Shown: positions 2,563-17,184 of the stretch, in pieces
Layout of the letters: each line of letters starts with the position of its first letter
Numbering within the stretch: position 1 is the first letter of the stretch
Sequence record: SRR2962707_4525
Direction: 5' to 3' (one strand)
DNA length: 33,061 nucleotides
The notes under the pieces: generated by a model
Databases searched by the model: none
The model's input: only the letters and a program-made list of their open reading frames with translations
Told to the model about the DNA's origin: nothing
Made by a program: the position numbers and the translations under genes

Positions 2563-2592
2563 ATAGAACCGGCAGAATTCTGCCGTTTCTAT
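2563..2592. terminator. 30-bp near-perfect palindrome between convergent genes (bidirectional terminator or recombinase site)
   Basis: ATAGAACCGGCAGAA|TTCTGCCGTTTCTAT, one mismatch; overlaps the recombinase TAG; followed by TTCTTTT on the + strand. Confidence 0.5.
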
Positions 2593-4199
2593 TTCTTTTG
2601 TCCAAGCACACGCACCATAGCGGGAAAGTCATATTCGATCACGCATGTACGATAGCAATGATCACTCAGAGCATCCCATTTGGCATGTATGTAATAGAGC
2701 TTCATTGTATGTCGCAACTGGGTGACGGCTTCAGGGTCTCGCGTCCACACCAGCAACTTATCAATTAACCGAAGAAACCGTTCATGGATTTCCTTGATGT
2801 TCGTAGGACGCGAGATTTCCTTGAGTTTTCGCTTTTCCCTGTCAATTTCGAGGCGGATCAACCGAACCTCTTCTGCGTTATCCTCAAGCCAAGCATTTCC
2901 ATTCAACAAATCAAGGCTATTTAGTATGTGTTCTGCCCGATCACGTAGCCCCTTAAGTCTGACTTCAGCGGTCTGGATGCGTTTGTTGACGCGCTCACGC
3001 TTTTCGACCATTTCGTCACTGTCATAGAACTGCGCAATGTCAGAAGTTTTGAGGCGTTGTGCTTCGCGTAGGACGACATCGATCAACTGATCATAGGGAA
3101 CAGACCTATGCGGGCAATTGGGGTTACTACAGGAATAGTGATGTGCCCAGTGTGCTCCGATCTTTGTGCCGTGTTCTGCGCATCTGAGGCGGCCAGCAAA
3201 GACTGCTGTAACGCGCTCTCTTGTTTTAATCTGCCGCTCACGCCAACTACGATTGAGATTCTTGTGAAGCTGCTTGGTCTCTTCAGGTGACCGCAACTTG
3301 ACCATTTCCCGATACTCGTTCGCTTTGCTTGAGCGCTCATCAAGCATTGACTGTACTTCATCAAAAACCTGATCATCGACAATTTGAAGTTCCGGGATCG
3401 GAACACGCACCCATTCATCCTCAGGGCGAACCACAGGCACTTTACGCCCCGTCGATGGGTTCTTTCGGTAGTGAAGTTTGTTGAATGTAACAATACCCTT
3501 GTAAAGCGTGTTACGGAGCAGGCCCGTTTTGCGGGATCGCGTGCCGACAAGGGTTGTTGAGTTCCATTTACCGCCGTTTGGCGATGCTATACTTTCCGCA
3601 TCCAACTCTTCACAGATGTATTTAAGCTTGTTGCCCGATTGATAGAGTTCAAAAATTTTCCGAACGGTTGCCGCCTCAGATTCAATGATCTGGCGCTTGC
3701 CCCGTATCGGTTCCCCACGTTCATCAAATGTACGGACGAGTTCATATCCATATGTGTTGCCACCGGGAACGCCACCACGCAGGACGGCCGAGACAACACC
3801 GCGATGGGTTTTGTCTGACAAATCCTTGAGATACAGAGCATTCATTGTACCCTTCAGGCCAATGTGAAGTTCGTTGATAATGCCCTCAGAAATGGTTTCG
3901 ACTTCAATGCCAACGAAACCCATTTTTTTGAAGAAGTTTGCTACGTCCCCCTGGTCTCGACTGATACGCGACAGATCTTCGCAAACAATCCGGTCAAATC
4001 GGTTGTCGAACGCGCCCATAAGCAAACTTGATATGCCCGGTCTGCTATCCATGTGAGCACCAGACATAGCTTCGTCGTAATACACGTCAATCACATGGTA
4101 TTTCTGAGCAGAGCAATGCCCTTCACATCTCACTATTTGATCTTGCGTACTGGTTGTTTGGCGGTCTGTAGAATGACGTGCGTAGATCGCAACTCTCAC
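2589..4199 (-). CDS. Large serine recombinase (resolvase N-terminus, recombinase domain, degenerate Zn ribbon, coiled coil)
   Basis: MRVAIYARHST with catalytic Ser10; SGAHMDSRPG; DLSRISR; YGY; LRNTLYKG; IVDDQVFDEVQ; LRCAEHG...YSCSNPNC; coiled-coil tail. Confidence 0.93.
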   Translation of the reverse strand: MRVAIYARHSTDRQTTSTQDQIVRCEGHCSAQKYHVIDVYYDEAMSGAHMDSRPGISSLLMGAFDNRFDRIVCEDLSRISRDQGDVANFFKKMGFVGIEVETISEGIINELHIGLKGTMNALYLKDLSDKTHRGVVSAVLRGGVPGGNTYGYELVRTFDERGEPIRGKRQIIESEAATVRKIFELYQSGNKLKYICEELDAESIASPNGGKWNSTTLVGTRSRKTGLLRNTLYKGIVTFNKLHYRKNPSTGRKVPVVRPEDEWVRVPIPELQIVDDQVFDEVQSMLDERSSKANEYREMVKLRSPEETKQLHKNLNRSWRERQIKTRERVTAVFAGRLRCAEHGTKIGAHWAHHYSCSNPNCPHRSVPYDQLIDVVLREAQRLKTSDIAQFYDSDEMVEKRERVNKRIQTAEVRLKGLRDRAEHILNSLDLLNGNAWLEDNAEEVRLIRLEIDREKRKLKEISRPTNIKEIHERFLRLIDKLLVWTRDPEAVTQLRHTMKLYYIHAKWDALSDHCYRTCVIEYDFPAMVRVLGQKK

Positions 4200-4221
4200 G
4201 GCATACCCTGTCTGAAATTGG

Positions 4222-4485
4222 TCAATGGATTGAGCTGCCCGGGTCTTTCTTTATCACTCTATGACGCCACGCGTACATTCGGGCTGGGGGCAATTGCTGA
4301 TCGCCACTAGCCGTCGTCACAATGTGGGTACCCTTTTCATCTTCGTCGAACAAACGTGGCCCTTTGTCGGCATCTCTGTATCCAAGGAATTTACAAACAT
4401 CGGTTCCGACAACCCATAACGGACCATCGATTTCAACATCTCGAAACACTACGTTTTTGAAACTAAAGGTGATGATACCGCTCAT
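4222..4485 (-). pseudogene. Truncated BRO-N (antirepressor-like) gene
   Basis: ATG with GAGGG RBS. IITFSF..FRDVEIDGPLWVVGTDVCKFLGY..DEDEKGTHIVTTASGDQQL aligns with the BRO-N ORF at 4872. Similarity stops at ~nt 4290, before the INESGLY/FRKWVT motifs. Confidence 0.75.
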
Positions 4486-4637
4486 TTATCGGCCCTCATG
4501 AAAGCACAACTTGAGAGTGAATATAGAATTCGAACTATGTTGATAAGCCACAGCGGAATCGGATGTGCAAGCAATATGTGACCGGAGTGTGACTTGCCCA
4601 AAAATGGCCGTTGGACAAGGGGTTGGCGGGTTTCTGC

Positions 4638-4697
4638 GAGTTTGCAGGAGTTCGCAAGAGTGTGCAGGAGTTTGCAGAACTTCGCACAACTTTGACC
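4638..4697 (+). repeat. Six tandem imperfect 10-bp repeats next to nic
   Basis: GAGTTTGCAG GAGTTCGCAA GAGTGTGCAG GAGTTTGCAG AACTTCGCAC AACTTTGACC. Confidence 0.85.
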
Positions 4698-4708
4698 TGT
4701 CGTTTCTT

Positions 4709-4792
4709 GGGCAGGATAGGTTAGGTGATATCACCTAACGATCATTCCATGACCCTCCTGCCTTATTCGCATGGCAAGCCATGCTCAACGGG
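4709..4792 (-). other. oriT: RP4/IncP-type origin of transfer (oriT); predicted nic between 4712 and 4711 on the minus strand
   Basis: Minus strand CCTATCCTG^CCC matches the RP4 nic. Adjacent perfect 20-bp palindrome GTTAGGTGATATCACCTAAC (4720-4739). CCTTATTCGCA (4761-4771) and TGCTCAACGGG (4782-4792) occur in the same order as in RP4 oriT as I recall it. A MOBP relaxase is in the window. Confidence 0.85.
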
Positions 4793-4871
4793 TAAAAAGG
4801 AACTGACATAAAGCACCTTCCCACATATCATTAACTACAGGTGCAGTTTGAAATGATAGAGGTACAGAGCA

Positions 4872-5651
4872 ATGACTGAGATCATCCCGTTTAGCTTTGA
4901 AGGTGCTGAAATCCGCACGGTTTATAGGAATGATGATCCGTGGTTCGTCGCCATGGATATTTGTGAGGCGTTGGGAATTGCGAATTCGCGTGATGCGATG
5001 GATCGACTAGATGATGACGAAAAAGATGAGGTCGGTTTAAGCGACGCCATCGGTCGGAAGCAGGAAATGACCGTTATCAATGAAAGCGGCCTTTACATCC
5101 TGATCCTGCGTAGCCGCAATGCTGTGAAACCCGGCACCCTACAACATCGGTTCCGCAAATGGGTTACATCCGAGGTCCTGCCTACAATACGAAAAACCAG
5201 CCTGTACGATGCCGGGACCAGCGAGGCAGCGCCAGATTTGCAGGCAGGCACACGCAATCCTGGCTATAGGTTGTTTGAAGCCATCATTCGTCCCGATGGT
5301 AATTGGGGTAAGGTTTGGGCCGTTCCGGTCTATAGACTGGGTGACACTGACTATTGGAATGTGCCGCTGCTACTTGAGGCATATTGCGGGTCAAGAGATT
5401 TCCCAGCGCACCTTTCTCCGCACGACTACGCTTATAATCTGATGAGGGAACTTCCTGAACTTCAGGCTGCCAGTCCGCTTTGGGTTGCACATCATTTCAA
5501 TTTGAAAATCATTATTCAGGGGGCGAACGGGGGTTACGATAAACGAACTCGTGAGTTTCTTGAGCAAATTGAGAATGCACACTTGACCGAGAAACCACTG
5601 CGTTCGGGCACCGTTGTTCATCTTCGAGATGTAACTAAACAGCCAAGCTGA
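4872..5651 (+). CDS. BRO-N domain protein with unknown C-terminal domain
   Basis: AGAGG RBS. IIPFSFEGAEIRTV..DPWFVAMDICEALGIANSRDAMDRLDDDEK..INESGLYILILRS..FRKWVTSEVLPTIRKT is a complete BRO-N domain. Confidence 0.9.
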   Translation: MTEIIPFSFEGAEIRTVYRNDDPWFVAMDICEALGIANSRDAMDRLDDDEKDEVGLSDAIGRKQEMTVINESGLYILILRSRNAVKPGTLQHRFRKWVTSEVLPTIRKTSLYDAGTSEAAPDLQAGTRNPGYRLFEAIIRPDGNWGKVWAVPVYRLGDTDYWNVPLLLEAYCGSRDFPAHLSPHDYAYNLMRELPELQAASPLWVAHHFNLKIIIQGANGGYDKRTREFLEQIENAHLTEKPLRSGTVVHLRDVTKQPS

Positions 5652-5712
5652 CATTACCTTGACTAGATATGTGTGCATGTGTTCTTAATGACCCTTCATT
5701 ATGGAGGGGTGA

Positions 5713-6849
5713 ATGACTGAATATACTCTGGACAACAAATCGCAAAGAATACCGCTACAGCTTGACCAAGACGAGTTGGTCAAACTTGATGAGCTGGGGG
5801 CTCGGCTATCTACGACGAGAAACCAAACTATCCGTTTGTTGATACAAAGAGAGATTTCAGTTCCCCGGATTGCAATTCCAGAACCCCGTACTGGAGAGGT
5901 TTTTCGGGTAGCCCAAGGTGCATATGGTGAGACAACGGAAATCCGTATGAAGAACGGTCGTGTTTTGCACTTCTACGTTGCTCCCTATCGCAATCGTTGT
6001 TGTATTCTGCTACTCGACCCTGAAATGACAGAGTCAGTTGGCTATCCAAACTACGATGAACTTTACGGGGATTCCGATGTTCTGGATGCTATTCTGGACT
6101 TGCGAGAGACGAAATATGATTGGGATGATCCGAGGTATCGGAACATTTGCAAATCGCTAAACATTGACCCCGACGAGAAACGGCCACAGTTCGTCAAAGA
6201 ATTCGAGCGGATTGCACGAGGGTTATCGAACCGTCAGGCTCGGTTCAGTTACATTTCCCCACATTGGGAACTGCTGCTTGATCTGGTTGACCTACTGCGA
6301 TCTGACATTCAGCCGACCCTCCAAATGCTCAACAGGGCAAAAGAGAGGTTCGACACATTGTCGGCGAAGGAACGTCCAGATGTTTATAATCAGGCGTTCA
6401 TCGCTGCCGAAAGTCGGAAATTGCCTTCTGAGCATCGTTTAACGACAGATATTATATTCCTGCCGAGCTGGACTGATTGCTACTGGAATAAGCGTGTTGG
6501 CCTTTGGGAATGCAAAGAGTGTGATGATGATGGGTGGACATCGGGCCATAATCACGACTTGCATGGTGTTGCCGCATTGCCGTCAGGAAAGCTTAATGAT
6601 GTTCAGGCCGTGATAGTTCAGAAACTTAAAAAGCAGGGTGTCATTTTCCTGAATGCGGGCGAAGTTCAGGATTACCTAAACAACGAGGGGGCTTACTGGG
6701 CTTGGAAAAACCTGACAATTAGGAAAGTTTTCGAAGGGCATCATGGTGCACGAAAACCAACAACGTCTGAAAAGATGAAATGGCGAATGCGTAAACCTGA
6801 AACGCCATTATATGACCGATGGTTGGGGCGACAGGAAAGAGCAGCTTGA
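5713..6849 (+). CDS. Hypothetical protein with N-terminal ribbon-helix-helix-like segment and CxxC..HxH motif
   Basis: GGAGGGG RBS; 378-aa ORF. QRIPLQLDQDELVKLDELGARLSTTRNQTIRLLI fits the RHH pattern. WECKEC...GHNHDLH in the C-terminal third. Confidence 0.75.
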   Translation: MTEYTLDNKSQRIPLQLDQDELVKLDELGARLSTTRNQTIRLLIQREISVPRIAIPEPRTGEVFRVAQGAYGETTEIRMKNGRVLHFYVAPYRNRCCILLLDPEMTESVGYPNYDELYGDSDVLDAILDLRETKYDWDDPRYRNICKSLNIDPDEKRPQFVKEFERIARGLSNRQARFSYISPHWELLLDLVDLLRSDIQPTLQMLNRAKERFDTLSAKERPDVYNQAFIAAESRKLPSEHRLTTDIIFLPSWTDCYWNKRVGLWECKECDDDGWTSGHNHDLHGVAALPSGKLNDVQAVIVQKLKKQGVIFLNAGEVQDYLNNEGAYWAWKNLTIRKVFEGHHGARKPTTSEKMKWRMRKPETPLYDRWLGRQERAA

Positions 6850-6951
6850 TATAGCTAAACTCTTGACCCGGACAAACCACGGGATTGCTGTTCAAGGATG
6901 TTGATTCCGGTTATAATTTTATGATCCGATTTGAATGCAGGTGCCCTGATA

Positions 6952-7338
6952 ATGGCAACTAGAGAACAGCTCGACGATAGTTATCGTCCGTTGACGCAAT
7001 CAGAACTCCAATCGCTGAAGCACGATATGCAGAATTCACTGCATATGATGCAGCAACAGGCATTTCTGAAGTCAATGGCGAAACGCTATATCTGGTGGAA
7101 GTCCCCAGATGAAGCGATTGCCAACCCGGACAGGGTACTTGCACAGCTCATGAACATCGGCGATTTCGATGATGTTGTCGAAATGGTCAAGCTTTTCGGG
7201 AATGAAAGACTTGGCCATGTTGTCAGTAACGCTGTGGCCGGCTGGTTTAATGAACGCTCCTGGTCTTACTGGCATTATCGACTAGGGCTTGCCGACATTG
7301 ATCATGTTCCGGCAATACCTGTGCGACGGTTCGATTGA
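6952..7338 (+). CDS. Putative antitoxin partner of the AbiEii-like nucleotidyltransferase
   Basis: ATG 6952 with GCAGGT upstream and TATAAT at 6912-6917. KRYIWW..P......RVLAQLMNIGDFDD..SWSYWHYRL resembles the small proteins found upstream of AbiEii-type NTases. Its stop abuts the next start. Confidence 0.75.
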   Translation: MATREQLDDSYRPLTQSELQSLKHDMQNSLHMMQQQAFLKSMAKRYIWWKSPDEAIANPDRVLAQLMNIGDFDDVVEMVKLFGNERLGHVVSNAVAGWFNERSWSYWHYRLGLADIDHVPAIPVRRFD

Positions 7339-7340
7339 CG

Positions 7341-8330
7341 ATGGCATTCTTACCTCGCATGGACATTCTCCCAGATGCTCAACGCGATCTTTGGCCAGAT
7401 TTCAAGGATGTCACGCAGCAGGGCTGGGTGCTGTATGGTGGGACAGCCGTTGCCCTCAGGTTAGGCCACCGACAATCCGTGGATTTCGATTTTTTCTCTG
7501 ATAGGCCCCTTGATCGAGATGGATTGCAGTCCGCGTTCACGGCCCTGAATGACAGCAGAGTCATTCAGGAGGAGCAGAATGCGATAACACTTCTGGTTAA
7601 CCCCCCCGGCAACACTGAAGACACCGTTAAAGTCTCTTTCTTTGGAAATATATCGACTGGTCGGGTGGCAACACCAGACATGACGGATGATGGTGTGCTT
7701 CAGGTTGCCGCACTTGATGATCTGATGGCTATGAAGCTAAAGGTCATACTTCAACGGGCCGAGGCGAAGGACTATCGCGATATTGCAGCTATGGTCGATG
7801 CAGGCATACATGTGGATCAGGGGCTTTCTGCGGCACGCCAGATGTTCGGGGATACTTTCCAGCCGAGTGAAAGCCTCAAGGCGATGACCTTTTTCGGGGA
7901 CGGAGATCTCCACACGCTGACATCCAAGGAACGCGCTACTCTCGTCAATACAGCAAGTGCAGTTAGCCGGCTGCCCGACGTGGCGTTGAAATCGAGAAGC
8001 TTGATAGATGAGCGCAATATTCAGGTACAGATTCCGCATGCCCTGAAACCATATCAGGCAGCACGGGAAAAACTGGAGAACTCTGGTGCTTCCGAGCCGG
8101 AAACCGCAGTAGCGCGTCGTAAACTGGCAATTGCACAGAGCTACTTTGATAAAGGGCTACTGGATGTGCCTGGAGCACATTCCGAGAAGATCCGCGAACA
8201 GGCACTTCAGGAAGCACGACAGACAATTGCAGAACCATCATCCACTGATACATTGAAATCAAGAACGACAGCCGAAAAGCCCGAGAAGCAAACGATCAAG
8301 AAATCCCGGGGCACGGGGTTCGAAATGTAA
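7341..8330 (+). CDS. AbiEii/AbiGii-family nucleotidyltransferase toxin with C-terminal extension
   Basis: LYGGTAVALRLGHRQSVDFDFF (GG..DxD NTase motif) and MKLKVILQRAEAKDYRDI (K..R..KDxxD). ATG 7341, or TTG 7335. Confidence 0.9.
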   Translation: MAFLPRMDILPDAQRDLWPDFKDVTQQGWVLYGGTAVALRLGHRQSVDFDFFSDRPLDRDGLQSAFTALNDSRVIQEEQNAITLLVNPPGNTEDTVKVSFFGNISTGRVATPDMTDDGVLQVAALDDLMAMKLKVILQRAEAKDYRDIAAMVDAGIHVDQGLSAARQMFGDTFQPSESLKAMTFFGDGDLHTLTSKERATLVNTASAVSRLPDVALKSRSLIDERNIQVQIPHALKPYQAAREKLENSGASEPETAVARRKLAIAQSYFDKGLLDVPGAHSEKIREQALQEARQTIAEPSSTDTLKSRTTAEKPEKQTIKKSRGTGFEM

Positions 8331-8341
8331 TCCCGAAAGAC

Positions 8342-11300
8342 TTACTTGATAGACCGGCCGACTTTTTGCGTAGGCTTCGTGTCTTTCTGCTTCTGCTTAA
8401 TCCCGACCGAGCGCAGCGTATCAGAAACCTTGCTCCGGTCACTTCCTTTGAGAAGATCCCCAAATGACATGCTGTTGCGCTTTTTGTCATGCTCTGAAAG
8501 CGGCGGCACCAGCACCTCGGCTTTGATAGCTTGAGCGGCTTCTCTCGCGAGATCAAGCGGGATGTTCTCCTTTGCCATATGGGCATCCATGGCAGCAAAG
8601 AGTATCTCGCGATCAGGATTATAGCGGCGGATGTTCTCACCAACAGCTTTGAGATTTTCTGAATTAACTGCCCATACGACGGGCTTGCGGGTATGACGGT
8701 TCAGTTCAATGGCGCTTGTCAGGTCATCGGCAATCAGAATTGGTTCGGTTGGGTCTTTGGATATTCGTCCCCCAACAATGTGATGCGCCCCTTTAATGCC
8801 GCCAGTTCCGGCGAGTGTTTCGACTGATCCACTTGGAGAAACACGATACACGCCAGAAAGTCGATTTCCGCCGTCTCGAAGCGGAATAAGGGTATTGCCC
8901 TCACCGTCAACCCGGAACCCGCTCCACGCCCTCTCAGACCCCATTTCTGGACGCGAGGAGATCTTGTCCGTGTCGGGGCGGATGGCGGATTGCCATGCCA
9001 GCCATCCGTCATCACCAACCATATTCGCCATTTCACTTCGAAGAGCAGTTAAAGACGGCGTTGTTTCGGGATCTGGCAAGACTTCTGCTTTCCAGATGTT
9101 TCGATGGGTGACGGCTTGTCTCGTCTGAAGGGTGCCGTTTTCATCTCGATACGGCTCTTTAACAACAACTTCCTTGCGTTCAGATATTTCAAGTGAAATC
9201 CAGTCTCCGGTTTGAGCGCCAGACTGGCTCACAACATCTGCAACATCGACACCCCAGACGTAACGTTCAGAACCGTTAACATCTTGCAGCTTGGCATAAC
9301 TGGAATTGGATTTATCAGGATCAAAATCAAAATGATCGTGCCCAAAATCGAGTAACCGTGCGCCGGCTCGGGTTGGTTCATGTTTGGCGTACTCTTTGAA
9401 AGAGGTAGCAAGTGCCGGTCGGACAATATCCACGGCCAGCTTTTCAGCTTTGGCGACGTCGTCCTGCTGACCGGACGCATCAAGGGCAATGATAATATTT
9501 ACATCGTTGTTCCGAAGCCTGATCTGTTCGGTGGTTTCGGCCCATGAATGTGCATCAGCCGGCACAACAACAGGACAGCGTGTCGCACGATGAATTGCCG
9601 CTGCATCTGCATAATTCAGGGCCACGACAATCGTATCCTTTTCCTCACGCCATTGAGGATCAATCATATGGTAGCAGGGGTGGTCTGGCTCTGTGGACTG
9701 CACAAGATCCTGACGGCCCATGTCGTCGATTAAAATCACGTTCTCTATACGGCCCGAACGGTCTTTAAGAGGGACTGCGACATCACCGGATTTTGTGATC
9801 TTCACCCCATAGCCACGCAGGCCATTCGTTTTAAGCCAGTTGGAGTTCCCCGGTGTTGCCCACTGTCCGCATTCGTCCCATACAAGAAAAGCTTGATCGT
9901 TGACTGCATGCGCAAATGTGCGACGCAGTTTTGTAAGATCATCATCATTTGGCATGGTGACAGATCGCACATTCGGCAAAGTGATTGGCGTTTTAGTGGC
10001 CACAATCGGTTTTACCATTGGATTGCGGTGACGGTGTTCTGTGATCGTCTTTCGGAGATCCTTCGCATCGGGAACGAAGACGACAGGGCGACGGGTCGCA
10101 TCATGTATTTTGACCGCATCAACATAGTCATCGGTAAAAATGACAGGGCCTCTATCGGACTGCTTCCGTGAATCTATGAGATGCGTCAACCCGCGAGCTT
10201 TAACATTCCCTATCTGCATGCGCTTGCCGTCGGGTGCATAGATGCTCACCCTTTGCATGTAACCGTTGGCATCCTTCAAAGGCACTATCAGATTACCTTT
10301 GTCGTCAATCCGACATCCCCGGCCTGTAGATCGTGAAGCAGCCAACCAGTTAAGCGATTTTGCACTGGCCCATTGGCCGGCTTCACGCCAAGCCGCCAGA
10401 GCTGGTGCTGCCAACTTCGAAACCGGGGTAGGTTTGTCATCCCCAAAGACCATATGAAGGAATTCCTGCTGGGCGATCAGGAAAACCATGGCCATTGGAT
10501 CTTTGTATGCTTCACTGAGCAGAAACAGCTTCCAATTGGAAATCGTCCGCTGGAAGAATGTGCGCCTTGTATGCATCGGCTTTTGCAAGTTCAGGTAACG
10601 CCGCCAGATTGGCGACATCGCAGGGTGTCGCATGTTGGGGCGTTTTTTATACCGTCGTTTGGGAGACGGGGATTTCTTCTCGCCATCTTCAGCTATAGGA
10701 GGTGTGAAACTACCGAGCTTTTTCTCAAGTGCAGTCTTACTTACCTTGCGGTCCAGTGCTGATGCTTTCATTCCTTGGCCGTCAGGACCAACCAGAACAA
10801 AACCATTGCCTCGTTTTTTTAACGTGAGGTCATATTCGGCTAAAGTTTTATGCAGATCTTGCCAAGTCTCGGCACCGTTGATGTGGCCAAGAATCTCTTT
10901 ACGATGCTGGAGAACATGATTCTGGAAGCTTTCCTGCCATGTCTGGGCTTCATAATCGCGAGCAGATGGTGACAGTTTAGGTCCATGATTGCCGCTCTGG
11001 GACATGCCTTTGTCGATAAACAGTCCGTACTCTTTTTCAAGTTTGCGCGATACACGATCAAGCACTTTGTAATCGCGATAGGGGGTGACGACCTGGAGTG
11101 TTCTCGGATGGATCTTGTTAAATGCGATGTGCATATGAAAATTGTCGGTATTGATATGCGTTCCTGCCACATATTGGTGTTCAGCATATCCAAGCCCTTT
11201 GGCATATGCCGAAGCAATTTCCTTGAGATCCTTTTCAGACAGTTGGTCTTTTTCCCCGGGACGGAAAGAAACTATCATGTGGTATGACTTGTCTGTAATT

Positions 11301-11497
11301 TCAGGCTTCATACGACGAACCGCATACACTTCGCGTAGCGCCAGTTCCAGATCGTCGAGCGTTTCACCTGAACCGCAGTTTGATATCCAGAATTTGTCGA
11401 GCTTTTCTCCGGGTTCTTTTGCCGCCGCGATGTATTCGGCCAGTGCCTTGAAATTGTCAGCTACATCGGGCTTCTTAGGGATTTTCTTGGCGATCAT
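8342..11497 (-). CDS. traI: MOBP (RP4 TraI-type) relaxase with three degenerate TOPRIM-like C-terminal repeats
   Basis: MIAK start, catalytic Tyr22 (LAEYI), motif II YHMIVSFRPGE, motif III HINTDNFHMHIAFNKIHP, then TWQDLH..L...GNG and MKASAL. ATGA overlap with the upstream traJ. Confidence 0.93.
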   Translation of the reverse strand: MIAKKIPKKPDVADNFKALAEYIAAAKEPGEKLDKFWISNCGSGETLDDLELALREVYAVRRMKPEITDKSYHMIVSFRPGEKDQLSEKDLKEIASAYAKGLGYAEHQYVAGTHINTDNFHMHIAFNKIHPRTLQVVTPYRDYKVLDRVSRKLEKEYGLFIDKGMSQSGNHGPKLSPSARDYEAQTWQESFQNHVLQHRKEILGHINGAETWQDLHKTLAEYDLTLKKRGNGFVLVGPDGQGMKASALDRKVSKTALEKKLGSFTPPIAEDGEKKSPSPKRRYKKRPNMRHPAMSPIWRRYLNLQKPMHTRRTFFQRTISNWKLFLLSEAYKDPMAMVFLIAQQEFLHMVFGDDKPTPVSKLAAPALAAWREAGQWASAKSLNWLAASRSTGRGCRIDDKGNLIVPLKDANGYMQRVSIYAPDGKRMQIGNVKARGLTHLIDSRKQSDRGPVIFTDDYVDAVKIHDATRRPVVFVPDAKDLRKTITEHRHRNPMVKPIVATKTPITLPNVRSVTMPNDDDLTKLRRTFAHAVNDQAFLVWDECGQWATPGNSNWLKTNGLRGYGVKITKSGDVAVPLKDRSGRIENVILIDDMGRQDLVQSTEPDHPCYHMIDPQWREEKDTIVVALNYADAAAIHRATRCPVVVPADAHSWAETTEQIRLRNNDVNIIIALDASGQQDDVAKAEKLAVDIVRPALATSFKEYAKHEPTRAGARLLDFGHDHFDFDPDKSNSSYAKLQDVNGSERYVWGVDVADVVSQSGAQTGDWISLEISERKEVVVKEPYRDENGTLQTRQAVTHRNIWKAEVLPDPETTPSLTALRSEMANMVGDDGWLAWQSAIRPDTDKISSRPEMGSERAWSGFRVDGEGNTLIPLRDGGNRLSGVYRVSPSGSVETLAGTGGIKGAHHIVGGRISKDPTEPILIADDLTSAIELNRHTRKPVVWAVNSENLKAVGENIRRYNPDREILFAAMDAHMAKENIPLDLAREAAQAIKAEVLVPPLSEHDKKRNSMSFGDLLKGSDRSKVSDTLRSVGIKQKQKDTKPTQKVGRSIK

Positions 11498-11853
11498 TTT
11501 GCGCCGCGCCCGATAGAGTTATCGACTTTCCGAACAGTGTCCTTCAGCTCGTCTTGAGTGGATTTTATCTGGTTGGCCAACTCGTCGTATTTACGCAACA
11601 ACTCAGAACTCAATGGCTCGTCCATCACGAGTTTGAGCAGGTTCCCCAAACGGGCAAGGTCAGCATTTACCGATAGCAAATCAAGAATACCCTGCGAGGC
11701 TTCAAAGTCTCGTTGATCAGGTAACGGGCTATTCATTAGCAGACGGCGCAGCACTTCGGATTGCGTGAGCCGTAACTGCTTTGACAGTTGATCCAGTCGA
11801 TCACTCTCTGAGTCTGGCAAAGTGACCAGAAGCCTACGCTTTTTTGTTGGCAC
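11494..11853 (-). CDS. traJ: Relaxosome accessory protein, TraJ/MobC family
   Basis: N-terminal RHH (RLLVTLPDSE..LTQSEVLRRLL) and LLSVNADLARLGNLLKL, comparable to RP4 TraJ INGDLGRLGGLLKLWL; immediately upstream of the relaxase. Confidence 0.85.
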   Translation of the reverse strand: MPTKKRRLLVTLPDSESDRLDQLSKQLRLTQSEVLRRLLMNSPLPDQRDFEASQGILDLLSVNADLARLGNLLKLVMDEPLSSELLRKYDELANQIKSTQDELKDTVRKVDNSIGRGAK

Positions 11854-11888: not shown

Positions 11889-11914
11889 GCTGCCGGTGTA
11901 ATCTCACCGGCAGC
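11889..11914 (-). terminator. GC-rich hairpin after traC, possible intrinsic terminator or attenuator
   Basis: GCTGCCGGTG-taatct-CACCGGCAGC, a 10-bp perfect stem 6 nt after the traC stop; followed on the minus strand by ACTTATTCTTTT. Confidence 0.6.
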
Positions 11915-11920
11915 TAAGCG

Positions 11921-14900
11921 TTAAACCGTCATATGATTTGACTGATTGAGCTGCTTCTTCGCCGTTACCTGTATGGATTTCCCCCGTCCGACAGAAACGC
12001 CAAGATCCGCAAGCTGTTTTCTCACGTCCTTGCGGAATTCATCAAACCCACGACTTACGTGCAGATCATTGAAATCCGTAAGACCTTGCAGTTTGTCCTC
12101 GGACGAAAGAGGTGGTTTGAGAATACTTGCATCTGAACGACCGGCGGCCTTGTTCGCAGCATTCAAACCTGGATTGAAGCCAACTTTTTCGACCTGCTTA
12201 TGGTCGTCGTCAGCAGCAATCAAATGCTGACGTTCGGGGTTTTGCTTGTGAAGGGCTTCGGCCACGACCGCAAGGTTTCCGCCGTCCATTGCAACAACAG
12301 CTGTAAACCCGGTTGCGGCATTCAGGCTTTTTGCCGTGGCATAACCTTCAGCAATAATCCACGGCTTGTCTTTCTTGCCCGGGATAACGTGCATTAAACC
12401 GGATTTCTTACCGTCCTTAAGATAGCGTTTGGTCCCATCTGGTTTGATGGTTTGCACATTTTCAATGAAGCCCTTCTCATTCGTCATTGGCATGATCAGA
12501 TTGCCCTCACGATCAATACGCAAGGTTTCGCCCGATACCTGCTTGCGTTTCAGATAGGGGTGATCGTTGCTGGCTTCGATTGCATTCTGGAATGTCGCAT
12601 AAGCTCGTTTCGCCGTTTGACGATACTGGAAGCGCAGTTCTTGTTCCTGTTCTGCTTTGCGAGCCGCAGATTGAGCTTTGACTTTTTCAAGCTCTACCGG
12701 ATCCATTTTAGTGCCACTGGCCACCCATTTTACCGGCTCACCGGCGGTTTTGAAATTCATGATCTGGCCAGCAGGAATACCTTCAAGAAATCCGCGATAG
12801 CTTCCGCTGGTTTTACCTTTGACATCACCGTTAACCGATACACGATGCCACTTACCGTCCATCTCGGCCGGTCCATCCAGAACTAAGCCGTTTTCACGAC
12901 AAGCAGCAGAAAATTCCAGTTGTGGATCGATCTTCTGATCAGATGATGGTTCGACTTTCTTCTGCCATTTGGCAAAAGCTTTCATGTCAGATCCTTCGTG
13001 AACGAACCATGCCTTATCGCGGCGGTCCCATTTGGCACCGAGGGCCTTGGCTTCATTCTTCTCTCGGAAGGGTACAGAGAGATAAACGCGTTTTTTTTCT
13101 GCATCGGTTGTGTCGGGAGCGTCTTTAATCGATCCGACCATAGCACTTGCCTCCTGACTTCTCTTTTTTTCCTTCTCATCCCGCGCTGCGAGAACCGTGT
13201 TGATAGAGCCTTCAGCAACATCTATTCCCATGTCACCATTTTCCAGTCCGGTGGCCTGCTTACGGATCGCCGTATGTAGTTTTTCCACTTCAGGGGTTAG
13301 GTAAGTGTACCGGTGATTGGAACCGTCATTGTACCAGTCATTGCCAATGATAGTGGTCTCTCGGCCACCTGCGACTATCGACAGATTAGACATCCCGAAA
13401 GGTCGAGAGCCTTCAAGGCCTCTTACAGCTACACCCAAAGAATCAAAGTTTTGCACGTCCCCCATTCCGTCCAGTTTATAAATACGGGTGCTGGGTTTTG
13501 CTGAATCATTAATAGCTTTCCTCTGCGTGAGATCGTTCTGCTGGTTTTGGATTGATTGATTAATCGGGCCATTTGAAAGACTTATTTCGAGTGGTTCACG
13601 CAGGCGATTGAGATGCTCATCTTTGCGCTGTTCGGCGGGCACATGCCATTCCGGTTTCTGGACGTGGGCTTTTGGCCTGGGACCATCCAGATCCCATAAA
13701 GCCGAGGCCAACTCGCGATGAAGCGGCGACGCCAATGCTTCACCTTCCATCAATGACAGTGTTTCGTCCCGGTGCGCGATGCCAGTAGCACGGCGTTCCG
13801 GCGAAGCTGCATAGTCTGCGACCCAATCAATCTTTTGGAATTGCTCGGCAAGCTGAGCGAATGCGTGATGTTCCTCATCATAGCCAGGCACAATAGAGGC
13901 AAAGCTGCCCCAGTTGGCGGCTTCTGCTGTCTGTCCGAGAAAGCGCCTAAGGTTATCGTTGGAAAGGTCGGATGCTTTCAATCCTTCCTTGATTTGATCA
14001 GCTGAGAGTTGTTCCTTGTTTTCACGATTTCCTGCAAGTACCAGCGTATCTTGAATATCTATCGCCCACAGGGTCGGGTGTGCGTGTGGATGGTTCTCGA
14101 ACATATGGTTGACAATTTCTTCACGCTCGACTGCCATTTTGTCATGTTGCGCCATGTTGACCGTCTGGCCGACTACCAACGGCTGATCTTGAGCCATAGC
14201 CTGTTGCCGTTCTTTGGCCGGTGTGAGTTCAAGACGTTTTTCCGGTTCCATGATCCACGTTTTGATCACTTCGGCGTCACGGGCGGCCTGAAACAGCACA
14301 TTGCGATCTTCCTTGATCGCTGTCATCCAACCTTCAATGTAGCTTGCGTGGCGTTCAGGATAGTGGCCAAGCCCCAGTTCAGTTGTCGTCATGAAAGAGG
14401 CTATCTCTGCCCGAAGCTCTTCGCGAGCATAGGATTCAGAACCAAAGGGGCCACCTTCGCGTGCAAGCCGCGAATGATGGCCAGTTGAATGGCCGCCTTC
14501 ATGCAGAGCGGTCGCGTAATATTCATACTGACCTTTGAACAACCCTTTTGGCGGCATATGGATTTCATCCGCCCCGGGTTGATAGAATGCGCGGTCACGC
14601 TGATCGTGAAAGATAGGAACATTGAGGTCGGAAAGAACCTGTTCAGCCCGTTCGACAGGGTTGAAATTTGGTTCCTGGCCGATGAACGGTTCAAGCCCAT
14701 CGATCTGCGAGCCGTTGAAGACGACAGCGTGAAACACCTTGGGACGCTCCAGCCGTACTTCTTGATAGAGTTGCTTGCCCTGGTCGTTGAGGATTGGAGC
14801 TCCGCTATTATCTGTCATTGGTCGCCGGTCGGACCATTGCCAATATTCAATTTGAGTGCCTTTCTCACCCTTTCGCACCTGATAACCATTGGCTTGTGAC

Positions 14901-15109
14901 TGGCGATAGGTCGTCCAACGAGGATCTGCGTAGCCTTGAGCTTCGAGCCAGATCTGGTTCATGCCACGATAGGGTTTGCCCGTGGCAGGATTGAATGCTG
15001 GAACGCGAACGTTGTCGGGTTCCCAGGGTTTTTGCCAAGGAGCGGTGCCGGCAGCAATTTGATCGATCAGCGTATCAACGACTTGATCGCGGAAATTTTT
15101 CTTAACCAT
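11921..15109 (-). CDS. traC: TraC-type ArdC/zincin/DUF5710/TOPRIM DNA primase fusion (1062 aa)
   Basis: ATG 15109 with GAGGAGG RBS. ArdC N-terminus (GTAPWQKPW, YRGMN, DPRWTTYRQ, VRKGEKG); HEGGH zincin motif and YAREELRAEIAS; YLSVPFREKNEAKALGAKWD; primase IAEGYATA, AADDD, TDFNDL. Confidence 0.92.
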   Translation of the reverse strand: MVKKNFRDQVVDTLIDQIAAGTAPWQKPWEPDNVRVPAFNPATGKPYRGMNQIWLEAQGYADPRWTTYRQSQANGYQVRKGEKGTQIEYWQWSDRRPMTDNSGAPILNDQGKQLYQEVRLERPKVFHAVVFNGSQIDGLEPFIGQEPNFNPVERAEQVLSDLNVPIFHDQRDRAFYQPGADEIHMPPKGLFKGQYEYYATALHEGGHSTGHHSRLAREGGPFGSESYAREELRAEIASFMTTTELGLGHYPERHASYIEGWMTAIKEDRNVLFQAARDAEVIKTWIMEPEKRLELTPAKERQQAMAQDQPLVVGQTVNMAQHDKMAVEREEIVNHMFENHPHAHPTLWAIDIQDTLVLAGNRENKEQLSADQIKEGLKASDLSNDNLRRFLGQTAEAANWGSFASIVPGYDEEHHAFAQLAEQFQKIDWVADYAASPERRATGIAHRDETLSLMEGEALASPLHRELASALWDLDGPRPKAHVQKPEWHVPAEQRKDEHLNRLREPLEISLSNGPINQSIQNQQNDLTQRKAINDSAKPSTRIYKLDGMGDVQNFDSLGVAVRGLEGSRPFGMSNLSIVAGGRETTIIGNDWYNDGSNHRYTYLTPEVEKLHTAIRKQATGLENGDMGIDVAEGSINTVLAARDEKEKKRSQEASAMVGSIKDAPDTTDAEKKRVYLSVPFREKNEAKALGAKWDRRDKAWFVHEGSDMKAFAKWQKKVEPSSDQKIDPQLEFSAACRENGLVLDGPAEMDGKWHRVSVNGDVKGKTSGSYRGFLEGIPAGQIMNFKTAGEPVKWVASGTKMDPVELEKVKAQSAARKAEQEQELRFQYRQTAKRAYATFQNAIEASNDHPYLKRKQVSGETLRIDREGNLIMPMTNEKGFIENVQTIKPDGTKRYLKDGKKSGLMHVIPGKKDKPWIIAEGYATAKSLNAATGFTAVVAMDGGNLAVVAEALHKQNPERQHLIAADDDHKQVEKVGFNPGLNAANKAAGRSDASILKPPLSSEDKLQGLTDFNDLHVSRGFDEFRKDVRKQLADLGVSVGRGKSIQVTAKKQLNQSNHMTV

Positions 15110-15341
15110 TGCCCAACACCTCCTCGATGGCGGTAGGATCCTCGCCGTCAAAATGACTGTCCAGTGCAGCATCCATAGACAGCGCCTGTTCATCGAAAGC
15201 GCCCATGGCTTCGGCAACATCGGGATCGACAGAAACAGGGCCAAGATCACTTGCCGCCGAGACGGCCTGTGTCGCGAGTTTGAGATATTCTGTTTCGTTT
15301 AACCGGGCGTTGGCGCCCTTGATGTTTTCAGGCTGCTTCAT
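15102..15341 (-). CDS. traD: IncP TraD-like small acidic protein
   Basis: VDPDVAEAMGAFDEQALSMDAALDS resembles recalled IncP TraD (FDPEEAERAGAFVEDALSEQDA); sits directly before traC as in RP4; GGAG RBS. Confidence 0.7.
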   Translation of the reverse strand: MKQPENIKGANARLNETEYLKLATQAVSAASDLGPVSVDPDVAEAMGAFDEQALSMDAALDSHFDGEDPTAIEEVLGNG

Positions 15342-17184
15342 GGGTATTCTCCGTTGCTGAAGGCATGTTGCGGTGAACAGGGGAGGGTTGCATTTCAGGT
15401 GGTGGCATCTGAGAGCGACGGTTTAGCTCTTTGTCGAGGAAATAGAGGTTTTGCGTGCCATGGATTGGCGGAATGCCCGCAACAAAGATCAATGAATCGC
15501 CGGGCTGTGCTTTCTTGCCCTCTGTATCGATGACAGGCAGGCGCATACATTCATCTGCGGTAAGAAGAGGCCGAGATGTTTCTTGAATATTGTCGGAATT
15601 TGATCCTGACATCTGACCGGATTTGCCCGATTGAGAACGCCGTTTCTGCACAATCGTGGTGCGGCCACTCATGTCTGAAATCAGCTTTGCTGTTTCAAGC
15701 TTGTTTGGCGTAAAGGCGATACGCACTTTCGAATTGGCCATAAGCGATTCATCTTTGCCGTAACATTTATGAAGCTGCTCGACATTCTGGAAAATCATGT
15801 ATGCCCGGATGCCGTATCCGGCCATGAACGCGAGCGATTCCTCCAGCACTTCCATTTTCCCGAGGGCTGCCAACTCATCGAGCATTAAAAGAAGTGGATG
15901 CTTATAACTTGCGGCCAGACTTTCAGTTTGCCGGCGTAAAAACATGTTCAGCATAATTCTGATCAAAGGCCGAAGACGGTCTTTATCCGCAGGGCTGACG
16001 ACAAGGTAAAGGGCCATCGGACGATCACCGTTCATCAGATCAGACAAGCGGAAGTCGCTTGTTGATGTGTTTCTTGCAATGATTGGATCGGCAAACACTG
16101 TGAGTTGTGTTTTTGCGTTGGAATGGACGCCAGAGCGTTCCTGCGGAGCTTTAATAGCCAAACTGTTTGCGCCGCGACGGACCTCTGTGTTGACGTGCTT
16201 GAGGCCGTGTTCATATTCAGCCATGGCTTCAAGGATCTTCACGAAGTTGTCCTGGGCGGACATTTGATCATCCCGGTCTTCGGCGGATGCCCCGGGGCGG
16301 GCAGCTTCCAATGCATCGGCTGGCGGTTTCACGGTTGAAATGCCTGAAAGGAACGTATTTACATCGTCAAAACAGGCGACGCGGTTCTCTTCTTTCCGGG
16401 TTTTGTATAGGACATGGAGCAATACGACAGAGAGCCAGCCATACCCTTCTTGTCGCCAGTAATCGTGCATCCCTTTGCCGTCTGGATCGATGATCATCTG
16501 AGCGATGTTTTGGCAGTCGCCAATGTCTCGTTCTGTATCAATGCGGATCTCAGCAAGTGGATTGAAACGGGATGACCCACTGATTGCGGCCGGCTCGAAC
16601 TTTTCTACCCGAATGCCAAAGAACTTCAGCCAACCGGCCGTTTTCGTGTAGTTCTCTCCCTTGATGTCAAGCGTGAGGCTAGAATGAACCCATGTGAGCA
16701 ATGTCTCAACAATCAGGGATACACCCTTGCCAGTACGAGTAGCAGCCCAAACCAGCACATGTTCTGGCCCTTTGTGGCGAAGCACTTTGATTTTGCCCCG
16801 CCAAGTTCTGATCGCACCAACGACAACAGAATCACCCGCCTTGCGCAAAAGACGCGCCTTGCGGATGTCTTTTAGTGTGGCCCAACGTGCGGAGCCGTGT
16901 AGTTCATTTCCTTTCCGAGATCCGGCAACAGTATCGTTACGTGCACGGGCAAGAAGAACACCAACTACCACCATCAAAGCTGTACCGGCGATTGCCGTGT
17001 AAACCGCAGGCATGAGCATTTCATCGGGCAGGCCGGCAGGGTGTGAGATTGCAGCAGCAAGCCATTGCCACCAAGCAGGGTCCCTCGGGTCGAAACCAAC
17101 AGAAAGATACCACTGACCTATAATGCCGGCGATCATGCCGAGGAAAATGACGACGAGGAAGAAATGACAAATGCGTTGGCTCAT
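15328..17184 (-). CDS. virD4: Type IV coupling protein VirD4/TraG
   Basis: Two N-terminal TM helices, HGSARWA, EHVLVWAATRTGKGVS (Walker A), DIKGEN, FNPLAEIR, LLMLDELAALG (Walker B), RPLLTADE. Confidence 0.95.
   Translation of the reverse strand: MSQRICHFFLVVIFLGMIAGIIGQWYLSVGFDPRDPAWWQWLAAAISHPAGLPDEMLMPAVYTAIAGTALMVVVGVLLARARNDTVAGSRKGNELHGSARWATLKDIRKARLLRKAGDSVVVGAIRTWRGKIKVLRHKGPEHVLVWAATRTGKGVSLIVETLLTWVHSSLTLDIKGENYTKTAGWLKFFGIRVEKFEPAAISGSSRFNPLAEIRIDTERDIGDCQNIAQMIIDPDGKGMHDYWRQEGYGWLSVVLLHVLYKTRKEENRVACFDDVNTFLSGISTVKPPADALEAARPGASAEDRDDQMSAQDNFVKILEAMAEYEHGLKHVNTEVRRGANSLAIKAPQERSGVHSNAKTQLTVFADPIIARNTSTSDFRLSDLMNGDRPMALYLVVSPADKDRLRPLIRIMLNMFLRRQTESLAASYKHPLLLMLDELAALGKMEVLEESLAFMAGYGIRAYMIFQNVEQLHKCYGKDESLMANSKVRIAFTPNKLETAKLISDMSGRTTIVQKRRSQSGKSGQMSGSNSDNIQETSRPLLTADECMRLPVIDTEGKKAQPGDSLIFVAGIPPIHGTQNLYFLDKELNRRSQMPPPEMQPSPVHRNMPSATENTHEAA

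Follow-up and report, generated by a model that had tools for sequence, protein, structure and literature searches.

The stretch of DNA analysed here (the window) comprises 33,061 nucleotides of sequence record SRR2962707_4525. At the locus under study lies a conjugative relaxase gene, traI, with the genes that neighbour it on the same strand; the coordinates of traI include its stop codon.

8342..11497, minus strand: traI, a 1051-aa MOBP-type conjugative relaxase with the whole array discussed below (open reading frame and translation)
11018..11497, minus strand: relaxase (HUH nuclease) domain, TraI aa 1-160; Pfam PF03432, E 1.6e-30 on aa 39-159
10700..10963, minus strand: TraI-like middle domain, aa 179-266; Pfam PF22863, E 9.9e-23
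10403..10699, minus strand: basic linker, TraI aa 267-365; pI 10.5, family mean pairwise identity 0.66
9920..10402, minus strand: unit 1, TraI aa 366-526; primase-core-like, without catalytic motifs, C-terminal part shortened; BLASTP to TraC E 5e-12
9368..9892, minus strand: unit 2, TraI aa 536-710; primase-core-like; BLASTP to TraC E 5e-7, fold match
9068..9361, minus strand: beta-rich middle domain, TraI aa 713-810, of the type that forms the C-terminal end of the NCBIfam MobP1 model
~8402..9013, minus strand: unit 3, TraI aa 829-1032; primase-core-like, the copy nearest to TraC; BLASTP E 1e-17, fold match
8345..8401, minus strand: basic C-terminal tail of TraI, aa 1033-1051, predicted to be disordered (pLDDT and charge)
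11494..11853, minus strand: NikA-like ribbon-helix-helix relaxosome accessory gene overlapping the start of traI; Pfam NikA-like E 4.2e-6, RHH_1 E 1.5e-4
11921..15250, minus strand: traC, a polyvalent protein with ArdC-N, zincin peptidase, DUF5710 and Toprim_3 primase domains (Pfam)
12047..12571, minus strand: TraC primase core, aa 894-1068, the predicted live paralogue of the units; unit HMM, and Pfam Toprim_3 on aa 965-1068
15328..17184, minus strand: type IV coupling protein (TraG/VirD4 type); Pfam T4SS-DNA_transf E 5.5e-92

To judge by its sequence, TraI is an active-looking relaxase of the MOBP (IncP TraI) type and belongs to an integrative-conjugative-type element found in Thalassospira. 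Residues 1-307 score 299.3 bits against the NCBIfam model TraI_MobP_relax (NF041893; cut-off 250), which is the sole NCBIfam match above cut-off, and no MOBQ model matches at E up to 1. Y22 and the histidines H114, H121 and H123 within HINTDNFHMHIAFN show no variation across 26 sequences, and we take them to be catalytic by assignment from RP4 TraI. The same strand carries the NikA-like gene, TraC, T4SS-DNA_transf, VirB8, VirB9, VirB10 and a VirB4-like gene, and the gene order around traI is repeated in a relative at 33 per cent identity. The true start of traC is probably the methionine at aa 48. An IncP-like nic motif (YATCCTGY) occurs twice, against 3.7 matches expected by chance, and not near traI.

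Behind its nuclease core, TraI repeats one kind of domain three times. A preliminary description, made from the letters alone, had proposed three tandem copies of the TraC primase domain here; every peptide it quoted is present in the TraI and TraC translations, and the homology stands well above chance. BLASTP of TraI against TraC returns three separate alignments, all onto TraC aa 899-1085, at 33 per cent identity for unit 3 (TraI aa 861-1033), 28 per cent for unit 1 (aa 384-500) and 26 per cent for unit 2 (aa 554-690), and the likeness of unit 3 extends beyond the TOPRIM fold to ∼20 residues short of both C-termini. The scores of units 1, 2 and 3 (56.2, 41.2 and 74.7 bits) compare with 20.8, 24.6 and 20.8 bits for the best of 200 shuffles per unit. 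The units also resemble one another, both pairwise (units 1 and 2, E 3e-23; 1 and 3, E 2e-14; 2 and 3, E 2e-10) and in profile–profile comparison by hhalign (probabilities of 99.7, 98.6 and 99.0 per cent, the first for units 1 and 2). The unit HMM, which unit 1 matches at E 2e-60 by construction, sets the boundaries at aa 366-526, 536-710 and 831-1023, and the nucleotide intervals that it gives, listed above, are very near those first proposed.

The preliminary description called the units TOPRIM domains, which is right as to the presence of TOPRIM and too narrow as to its extent. On the structure models each unit is a whole catalytic core of the DnaG/T7-gp4 type, that is, an N-terminal subdomain plus TOPRIM, and a Trp-rich helix, absent from TraC, stands before each of them. 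The fold is shown for units 2 and 3, as had been suggested could be checked with AlphaFold and Foldseek. The AlphaFold model of unit 3 matches T7 primase in VIA-align (1nui_B, Z 15.4, rmsd 3.5, 184 residues aligned), as well as Aquifex DnaG (2au3_A, Z 13.1) and a small Toprim protein (2i5r_A, Z 10.5), and it finds 5ikn_G in Foldseek at E 5.7e-6. Unit 2 likewise matches 1nui_B (Z 13.2, rmsd 3.5, 173 aligned, model residues 166-353) and, in Foldseek, 6n9x_C at E 3.6e-6; of its Atlas neighbours that have a Pfam family, the ten best all fall in a Toprim family or in the Toprim clan, with scores of up to 0.92. For both models the matches after 1nui_B are DnaG, Twinkle and T4 primases at Z 9.4-13.1, where the tool itself states a typical best background Z of 7-8. 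In the joint model of units 1 and 2 all top VIA-align rows fall on unit 2; the rows on residues 41-176 are Rossmann-like folds at Z ∼5.2-5.6, and the helices and strands of unit 1 follow one another as they do in unit 2. A sequence search of the PDB gave chance-level matches only for unit 3 and for the TraC core (best E 0.67 and 0.12).

What the units have lost is the catalytic equipment. The EGYATA of TraC reads DDYVDA, LNYADA and DDLTSA in units 1, 2 and 3, its AADDDH reads ATKTP, ALDAS and AAMDAH, and its DFND has become SFGD in unit 3. Across the relaxases, among units covering at least 100 HMM positions, the catalytic Glu is kept in 3 of 115 and DxD in 3 of 115, while EG and DaN are found in none of the 115; the corresponding counts in primase domains are 126, 125, 126 and 110 of 126. 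The DaN motif, which precedes strand 4, is described as a feature of Toprim primases (Iyer et al. 2017, PMC5512222), and its loss adds to those of the Glu and DxD already noted in the preliminary description. The N-terminal subdomain has changed as well: primases conserve HMM columns K22, Q52, K60, K65, K69 and R172 at 0.82-1.00, and none of the three unit classes retains them; W4, W10, R47, R101 and R124 have been gained. With the metal-binding Glu, DxD and DaN and the conserved lysines gone, no unit is predicted to make primers, and all three are probably inactive as primases. Because the lysines of the N-terminal subdomain are among the losses, the contacts that the ancestor made with DNA or NTPs may also have disappeared, and the picture of a primase that has lost catalysis and kept its template binding is unsafe. 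The preliminary account of homology, of motif loss and of a maintained frame and core holds; the roles that it gave the units, as ssDNA-binding, translocation-signal or decoy modules, are conjectural. TraC, by comparison, has EG, DDD and DFND all intact (Pfam Toprim_3 E 8.9e-9) and is predicted to be an active primase, as was first thought.

It might be asked whether one unit, likeliest unit 3, has instead kept an activity with a remodelled site, such as weak priming or TOPRIM-type nuclease activity. In the close family unit 3 has Asp in place of the catalytic Glu in 25/25 members, the middle Asp of DxD is retained and the site reads TDA or MDA in 20/25, and D924, D925, E931, D971 and H973 are at least 90 per cent conserved; in view of these acidic residues unit 3 could conceivably still bind some metal. 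Four positions past the lost Glu an acidic residue is also present in unit 1 (25/26) and unit 2 (23/26), a position that we take to be that of E. coli DnaG Asp269, and small TOPRIM nuclease domains match the unit 3 model at Z 9.7-10.5. The absence of EG and DaN from every unit counted and the near absence of a full DxD nevertheless make retained activity quite improbable, and among distant relatives only 3 of 10 have kept an acidic residue where the Glu would stand in unit 3. No Pfam Toprim match is obtained either, with the cut-out units at E up to 10 or with the whole of TraI at E up to 1.

The statement that the motifs were lost differently in each copy is true of the window protein; it does not hold as a description of ongoing decay. 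Each unit has its own consensus throughout the family (FTxDYADA in unit 1, AR/L-D/N-YADA in unit 2 and ADDLVSA in unit 3), and the losses are therefore old and fixed. If the units were functionless remnants, decaying duplicates that ride along with the relaxase, missing catalytic motifs and a poorly conserved tail and linkers would be natural: the TraI tail has a mean pairwise identity of 0.26 in the family, and some linkers are also poorly conserved. The units themselves, however, are at 0.61-0.64, and in six pairs their dN/dS is 0.08-0.27 (0.03-0.13 for the relaxase domain), so that frame and core are kept, as had been claimed. The reading frame is open in 12 family loci at E 1e-230 or better, two more copies (G003 and G037) being in pieces. 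To this can be added the retention of three units in distant relaxases (below), the newly conserved residues listed above, and confident structure models of the array (pLDDT 85-89; pTM 0.83 for units 1 and 2, a pair predicted to be rigid). A functionless remnant is thus close to refuted.

A search for homologues of the same architecture recovered a family, and the three-unit architecture is a trait of that family and no singleton. At least ten relaxases from other 50-per-cent-identity clusters carry three units, some of them just ∼35 per cent identical to TraI, as judged from Pfam annotation of 36 among the best 150 of 1,801 matches; in one protein (P0047) the third unit is a partial match of 58 residues at E 7e-4. 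The family is rare and comes mostly from Thalassospira or marine metagenomes. In a tree with 48 primases the relaxase units cluster together and apart, with moderate support only for a single origin (FastTree 0.75, SH-aLRT 76.3, UFBoot 76). A first tree had units 1 and 2 as sisters, and this grouping was dropped when, with more sequences, the unit classes were not cleanly monophyletic. Five relaxase-less proteins with three units (P0021, P0026, P0031, P0038 and P0045) were considered as a stand-alone form and are taken to be partial gene calls, because their starts fall inside the TraI linker or unit homology; the two whose contigs are known lie on short contigs of 8.2 and 6.4 kb. Among plasmids, tblastn with units 1 and 2 against 72,556 sequences matched 219 records, and among the matches listed (60 of 219) the gene is a relaxase only in T. 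marina, the other 59 being DUF5710 or hypothetical proteins. Classical MOBP relaxases with such units were not found with the queries used, and E. coli-type MOBP relaxases align only with TraI aa 1-268.

Taken as a whole, these observations are best explained by an active-looking relaxase that carries, behind its nuclease core, an old and fixed array of three pseudo-primase domains, which are kin to the core of TraC from the same element and would accompany the relaxase as a non-catalytic module; we put this reading at slightly better than even (roughly 55 per cent). The array might hold the transferred single strand, offer the relaxase–DNA complex to the coupling protein and the secretion channel, or do both, while priming itself would fall to TraC. 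By analogy with the dead domains of other systems, a role in DNA handling or recognition is plausible, at odds somewhat short of even. The charge of the units gives no clear DNA-binding signature: median pI is 8.95, 6.0 and 9.1 for units 1, 2 and 3, and of the units in the window protein the second and third are acidic or neutral, a mixture that makes the array unlike a uniformly DNA-binding one.

The dead units might act on TraC itself. As pseudoenzyme partners they would bind, recruit or regulate it, for example by loading it on the 5′ end of the transferred strand, or they would mimic it so as to share a route of recognition by the coupling protein. There is some reason to consider this, given that a TraC with intact Toprim_3 lies 1-3 genes from TraI at all three loci checked (the window, T. 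marina pCSC3H3 and the distant relative L019). In 10 genomes of the same genus, 13 TraI loci have a further weak match at a distance of 1.5-4 kb; it falls in an open reading frame of 375-1260 aa, a putative TraC by its position. The similarity of unit 3 to TraC almost reaches both C-termini, and basic tails are common to the two families: 26/29 members of the TraI family are positively charged over their last 30 aa, as are 18/18 TraC family tails, and in TraI itself aa 1021-1051 have a pI of 11.2 and the last 15 residues a pLDDT <50. Roseibium plasmids, moreover, have a short 360-aa relaxase adjoining a DUF5710 primase, an arrangement that indicates that relaxase and primase parts are modular. 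Against a partnership, the units are just 26-33 per cent identical to TraC and have conserved residues of their own, and we know of no DnaG-type catalytic cores that pair with one another. Two structure predictions for a complex between TraI aa 360-1051 and TraC aa 880-1109 scored 0.00; they used no alignments and no folded controls, and they speak neither for nor against contact. We regard a TraC partnership as improbable, though less so than retained activity in one of the units.

The reading of the array as a non-catalytic module can be set beside several known systems. The RP4/IncP type shares the relaxase family (TraI_MobP_relax above cut-off), its primase is likewise a separate gene with an EGYATA-type Toprim_3, and the beta-rich middle domain of TraI here corresponds to the C-terminal part of the MobP1 model; TraC1 is described as being transferred to the recipient (PMC5512222). 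The nearest parallel in logic is F/R1 TraI, a MOBF relaxase in which a DNA enzyme domain persists as a dead copy: its vestigial helicase serves as a single-stranded DNA-binding domain and holds translocation signal A (PMC5422253). That vestigial domain is a RecD2-like SF1B helicase and is present once, with the live copy in the same protein, whereas here the domain is a DnaG/TOPRIM primase core, there are three dead copies and the predicted live copy is a separate gene, traC. Human Twinkle has an N-terminal primase-like domain of the same fold family (7t8b_A, Z 12.5 for unit 3 and 11.9 for unit 2), and that domain is reported to have lost primase activity, to bind DNA and to support function (PMC2241861, PMC9860392); it occurs only once, however, in fusion with a hexameric helicase of the mitochondrial replisome, with neither a link to conjugation nor a tandem array.

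The primase of RSF1010/R1162 MobA is not known to have a TOPRIM fold. That protein is also a MOBQ relaxase with an active primase part, in contrast to the MOBP relaxase and predicted dead units here, and its C-terminal primase-related part is needed for transfer (PMC12857230, citing Henderson and Meyer 1999). The units derive from the family of the TraC-type polyvalent proteins (Iyer et al. 2017, PMC5512222), the DaN-containing Toprim primases of conjugative elements. Their Toprim domains are described as catalytically active, and the descriptive text of that paper, its full architecture lists aside, mentions no relaxase fusion or dead array. Full-text literature searches found no described relaxase with a triple pseudo-primase array, in keeping with the original claim of novelty. 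As a separate observation, P0058, a TraC-type primase, holds a second degenerate Toprim copy.

To our knowledge the C-terminal regions of most MOBP relaxases are without assigned function, and recognition of these relaxases by the coupling protein is far less understood than that of F-type TraI. In the TraI family the C-terminal module is well folded, repeated, strongly conserved and of known origin, a primase core, and it gives a handle on what relaxases need beyond nicking, on dead enzyme domains as a recurrent means of holding single-stranded DNA or carrying secretion signals, and on how pseudoenzymes evolve from a primase of the sort that the element transfers. The value of this rare, environmental family is mechanistic and evolutionary, not clinical. 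More speculatively, and with somewhat less assurance than for a handling or recognition role, the array might represent a kind of relaxase accessory module that has so far gone unrecognised, namely a pseudoenzyme scaffold whose ancestor was a transferred primase of the TraC type. Such a scaffold would be to this MOBP lineage what the helicase-derived domains are to MOBF relaxases. It could grip the T-strand and carry a coupling-protein signal, and it might dock TraC at the 5′ end, in which case priming in the recipient would begin where the relaxase sits.

Between units 2 and 3 lies the beta-rich domain; positions 230-321 of NF041450 align here with TraI aa 709-802 at E 8.6e-13. An identity with LPD7 was considered and rejected, since hhalign against an alignment of 10 LPD7 segments gives 0.3 per cent, and TraI aa 700-828 have no Pfam match, LPD7 included, at E up to 10; the T. 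marina homologue of TraI is named LPD7 in UniRef. An Atlas search with the domain gave only a match at 0.76, without a family, and Foldseek gave weak SSB/OB matches (E 7.9e-3, TM 0.33). The domain that lies downstream of LPD7 in polyvalent primases, by comparison, matches it in hhalign at 99.8 per cent.

TraI belongs to the MOBP relaxases. Residues 1-307 score 299.3 bits against the NCBIfam model TraI_MobP_relax (cut-off 250), Pfam places Relaxase at aa 39-159 and TraI_middle at aa 179-266, and neither Tyr22 nor the histidines of HINTDNFHMHIAFN vary among 26 aligned sequences. Over the rest of the protein Pfam returns no further above-chance match, and it is here that three units related to the primase core of TraC are found (unit 1, aa 366-526; unit 2, aa 536-710; unit 3, aa 829-1032).

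Features in and around traI (window coordinates)
2589-4199, downstream of traI: large serine recombinase
4872-5651, downstream of traI: Bro-N protein gene
6931-7338: small ORF upstream of the AbiEii toxin gene
7335-8330, downstream of traI: AbiEii toxin gene
8342-11497, minus strand: traI, 1051 aa, containing the whole finding (ORF and translation)
9068-9361 (TraI aa 713-810): beta-rich middle domain, between units 2 and 3
11494-11853, same strand as traI: NikA-like ribbon-helix-helix gene, first gene upstream
11921-15250, same strand, upstream after the NikA-like gene: TraC, with ArdC-N, zincin peptidase, DUF5710 and Toprim_3
upstream after TraC, same strand, in this order: VirD4-type coupling protein, VirB11-like ATPase, VirB-type T4SS

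The genes at 2589-8330 beside traI are cargo or boundary genes. At the locus of a distant relative (L019) a serine recombinase likewise ends the element, after traI.

The claim that TraI holds three TraC-primase-like units, at the positions first given for them, is borne out by BLASTP, in which TraI aligns three independent times to a single TraC target, aa 899-1085: through aa 384-500 of unit 1 (E 5e-12), aa 554-690 of unit 2 (E 5e-7) and aa 861-1033 of unit 3 (33% identity, E 1e-17). Against the TraC core the units score 56.2, 41.2 and 74.7 bits, respectively, and the best score from 200 residue shuffles per unit was 20.8-24.6 bits. The units also match one another (E 3e-23, 2e-14 and 2e-10), with pairwise hhalign probabilities of 98.6-99.7% between their family profiles, and every peptide quoted in the preliminary description occurs in the TraI or TraC translation. 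For the isolated units Pfam lists no Toprim family at E up to 10. JGI labels several family members 'phage/plasmid primase-like uncharacterized protein', an automatic annotation.

Structure models built from alignments of family members gave a mean pLDDT of 88.7 and pTM of 0.83 for aa 360-712, and of 85.1 and 0.65 for aa 713-1051. In an all-against-representatives structural search, for which the tool states a typical best background Z of 7-8, unit 3 matched the T7 gp4 primase fragment 1nui_B (Z 15.4, rmsd 3.5 Å, 184 residues aligned), Aquifex DnaG 2au3_A (Z 13.1), Twinkle 7t8b_A (Z 12.5), B. subtilis DnaG (Z 12.3) and the small Toprim protein 2i5r_A (Z 10.5), and unit 2 matched 1nui_B (Z 13.2, 173 aligned), Twinkle (Z 11.9) and M. 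tuberculosis DnaG (Z 10.9). Foldseek led to the same outcome (best E 5.7e-6 for unit 3 and 3.6e-6 for unit 2), and units 2 and 3 thus have DnaG/T7-type primase folds in their models. The units had been described as TOPRIM domains; the TOPRIM fold is there, but the structural alignments begin well ahead of it, and each unit therefore corresponds to a whole DnaG-type RNA-polymerase core. Unit 1 has a helix and strand order identical to that of unit 2 in the shared model, and by homology probably the same fold. A language-model feature search with unit 2 reached Toprim_3 or DUF7146 clusters (top score 0.92), with a common family or clan in all ten of the best Pfam-carrying matches, a result that serves only as a lead because shuffled proteins can also reach ten of ten.

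The residues of primase catalysis are all but gone from the units, as had been claimed for the Glu and the DxD. Motifs were counted in all domains whose match to a unit HMM spanned 100 positions or more, with shorter matches left out, giving 126 primase domains from TraC relatives and 115 relaxase units (26, 26 and 25 from the close family and 14, 14 and 10 from distant members).

Domains retaining each motif
Real primase domains (n=126): Glu 126; EG 126; DxD 125; DaN 110
Relaxase units (n=115): Glu 3; EG 0; DxD 3; DaN 0

The DaN- motif is one described for this primase group in section 18 of Iyer et al. (PMC5512222). Seven further HMM columns conserved in the primases (0.82-1.00), namely K22, Q52, K60, K65, K69, T95 and R172, are lost from each of the three classes of unit, and two Trp of the N-terminal helix, D43, R47, R101, R124 and P106 (HMM columns) are gained and conserved in the units. 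By fold and ancestry the units belong with the DnaG-type Toprim primases, yet none of the tests for a catalytic motif is passed. They are therefore not classed as primases, and it is very unlikely that they act as such. In the close family, Asp occupies the Glu position of unit 3 in 25 of 25 cases and the middle Asp of DxD is retained, and an acidic residue lies four positions past the lost Glu in 25/26 copies of unit 1 and 23/26 of unit 2. Given these retained acidic residues, the units may keep some metal binding or another activity.

Mean pairwise identity among 24 family members is 0.81 for the relaxase domain, 0.74 for TraI_middle, 0.61-0.64 for the three units, 0.60 for the middle domain and 0.26 for the tail. 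Over six gene pairs with usable dS (Nei-Gojobori), dN/dS was 0.08-0.27 for the units, 0.03-0.13 for the relaxase plus TraI_middle and 0.13-0.37 for the middle domain (one value not computable). The frame is kept, as had been noted, and the identity and dN/dS of the units together all but rule out decay of the array.

TraI is thus an intact-looking relaxase joined to three conserved, well-folded primase-core domains devoid of primase residues, and the gene adjoining it, by its motifs, appears to encode a live primase. There is reason to think that the array would be a non-catalytic module accompanying the relaxase and, with it, the 5' end of the transferred strand. By analogy, such a module draws support from two precedents, one of them F/R1 TraI, in which a vestigial helicase domain serves for ssDNA binding and contains translocation signal A (PMC5422253). 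Simple DNA binding by the units is opposed by the loss of the primase lysines and by their mixed charge, and the main rival is that the units would pair with TraC or reach the coupling protein by copying the putative route of TraC.

Trees of the shared core, calculated without the three units of one protein (P0056), unite the relaxase units in a single group that contains no primase: FastTree gave this group a support of 0.75 (70 units and 48 primases), and IQ-TREE, on a 69-sequence subset, placed 42 of 42 units together (SH-aLRT 76.3, UFBoot 76). A single group therefore seems moderately well supported, and the simplest reading would be that a primase core was captured once and then duplicated twice. 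FastTree makes the P0056 units the sister of the relaxase units, IQ-TREE puts them among DUF5710-Toprim primases, and given these differing positions a separate capture is possible for that protein.

Other architectures were met among the relatives. P0044 (405 aa) consists of three almost identical unit-1-type repeats, and P0047 has NikA fused to the relaxase N-terminus and a Recombinase-domain hit after unit 2. A TraC-type primase of 1102 aa (P0058) has two tandem cores, the first with intact AEGY, DNDH and DFND and the second with ATDYSSA and ADQNL instead, and so a dead copy next to a live one also occurs inside a primase protein. A 1436-aa metagenomic protein (P0299), 39% identical to the TraC primase region of the window, carries TrwC relaxase, AAA_30, AAA_19 and Toprim_3 in precomputed Pfam, which means that elsewhere a TraC-type Toprim is joined to a MOBF relaxase-helicase. 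In a related backbone, on a Roseibium aggregatum plasmid (L002 2639-5270), separate genes encode a short MOBP relaxase of 360 aa and a DUF5710 primase of 407 aa. Within this element group the primase part is modular.

The triple-unit arrangement is real and conserved. A word-indexed search with TraI aa 360-1051 found 31 protein clusters, 26 of them with Relaxase plus TraI_middle in precomputed Pfam; their named organisms are all Thalassospira species except for one Rhodospirillum sp. record (P0032), and a protein assigned by NCBI to Thalassospira alkalitolerans (P0003) is 98% identical. Some match was present in 22 of 61 related whole genomes. Of 37 genomes from the nearest genus, 11 gave strong matches (E below 1e-200), one of these lying on a single-contig 4.5-Mb chromosome, and the 24 other genera sampled from the order gave none; class-wide, 4 of 401 genomes matched at E 1e-15 or better. 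One genome (G037) holds three traI copies, one split into two adjoining ORFs inside the array (contig 1, 2797274-2799201). Units 1 and 2 matched 219 of 72,556 plasmid records by tblastn, and among the 60 of these listed only T. marina pCSC3H3 matched under a relaxase gene, the other 59 matching under DUF5710 or hypothetical genes. An exhaustive HMMER search covering 1.84 billion representatives yielded 1,801 hits at E<=0.001 (180 at <=1e-10, 23 at <=1e-30). A Pfam scan of 36 among the best 150 of these hits found 13 with Relaxase plus TraI_middle, one of whose clusters includes a Novispirillum itersonii protein; ten are 886-1129 aa long with three units each (the third a partial match in P0047), giving at least ten distant relaxases of the same architecture, and three, of 538-606 aa, have a single unit and may be truncated. 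In a relative with 33% identity in the units the gene order is that of the window (VirB11, coupling protein, TraC with Toprim_3, NikA, TraI, cargo, serine recombinase), and the distant three-unit relaxases and this conserved order mark the array as an old trait of a rare element lineage.

The supposition that no such relaxase had been described agrees with a full-text literature search, which found no account of dead Toprim or primase domains in any relaxase, although the architecture tables of Iyer et al. 2017, or supplements in general, could contain one. In its main text, as far as it was drawn on, that paper calls these Toprim domains catalytically active and leaves a relaxase fusion unmentioned (PMC5512222). 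A 2025 T4SS review, in the portion available, names only helicase domains (MOBF, some MOBQ) and an active primase domain (MOBQ).

The middle domain, for which Pfam has no family, matches the C-terminal part of MobP1 in NCBIfam (E 8.6e-13) and, by hhalign (99.8%), a domain downstream of LPD7 in polyvalent primases. The LPD7 label of the T. marina homologue in UniRef was rejected for it (hhalign 0.3% to LPD7). Foldseek gave weak SSB/OB-fold matches (E 7.9e-3, TM 0.33). The last 15-19 residues of TraI are basic and predicted to be disordered, and a positive charge over the last 30 is shared by 26 of 29 TraI relatives and 18 of 18 TraC relatives. In this respect they resemble VirB/D4 substrates, whose C-terminal signals are charged.

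A perfect 10-bp, GC-rich hairpin (GCTGCCGGTG / CACCGGCAGC, window 11889-11914) lies in the 67-nt gap from the traC stop to the nikA start, upstream of nikA-traI, and could be a traC terminator or an oriT inverted repeat. T. marina pCSC3H3 has a hairpin in the matching place (L001 9082-9112), with the matching core GCCGGTG / CACCGGC.
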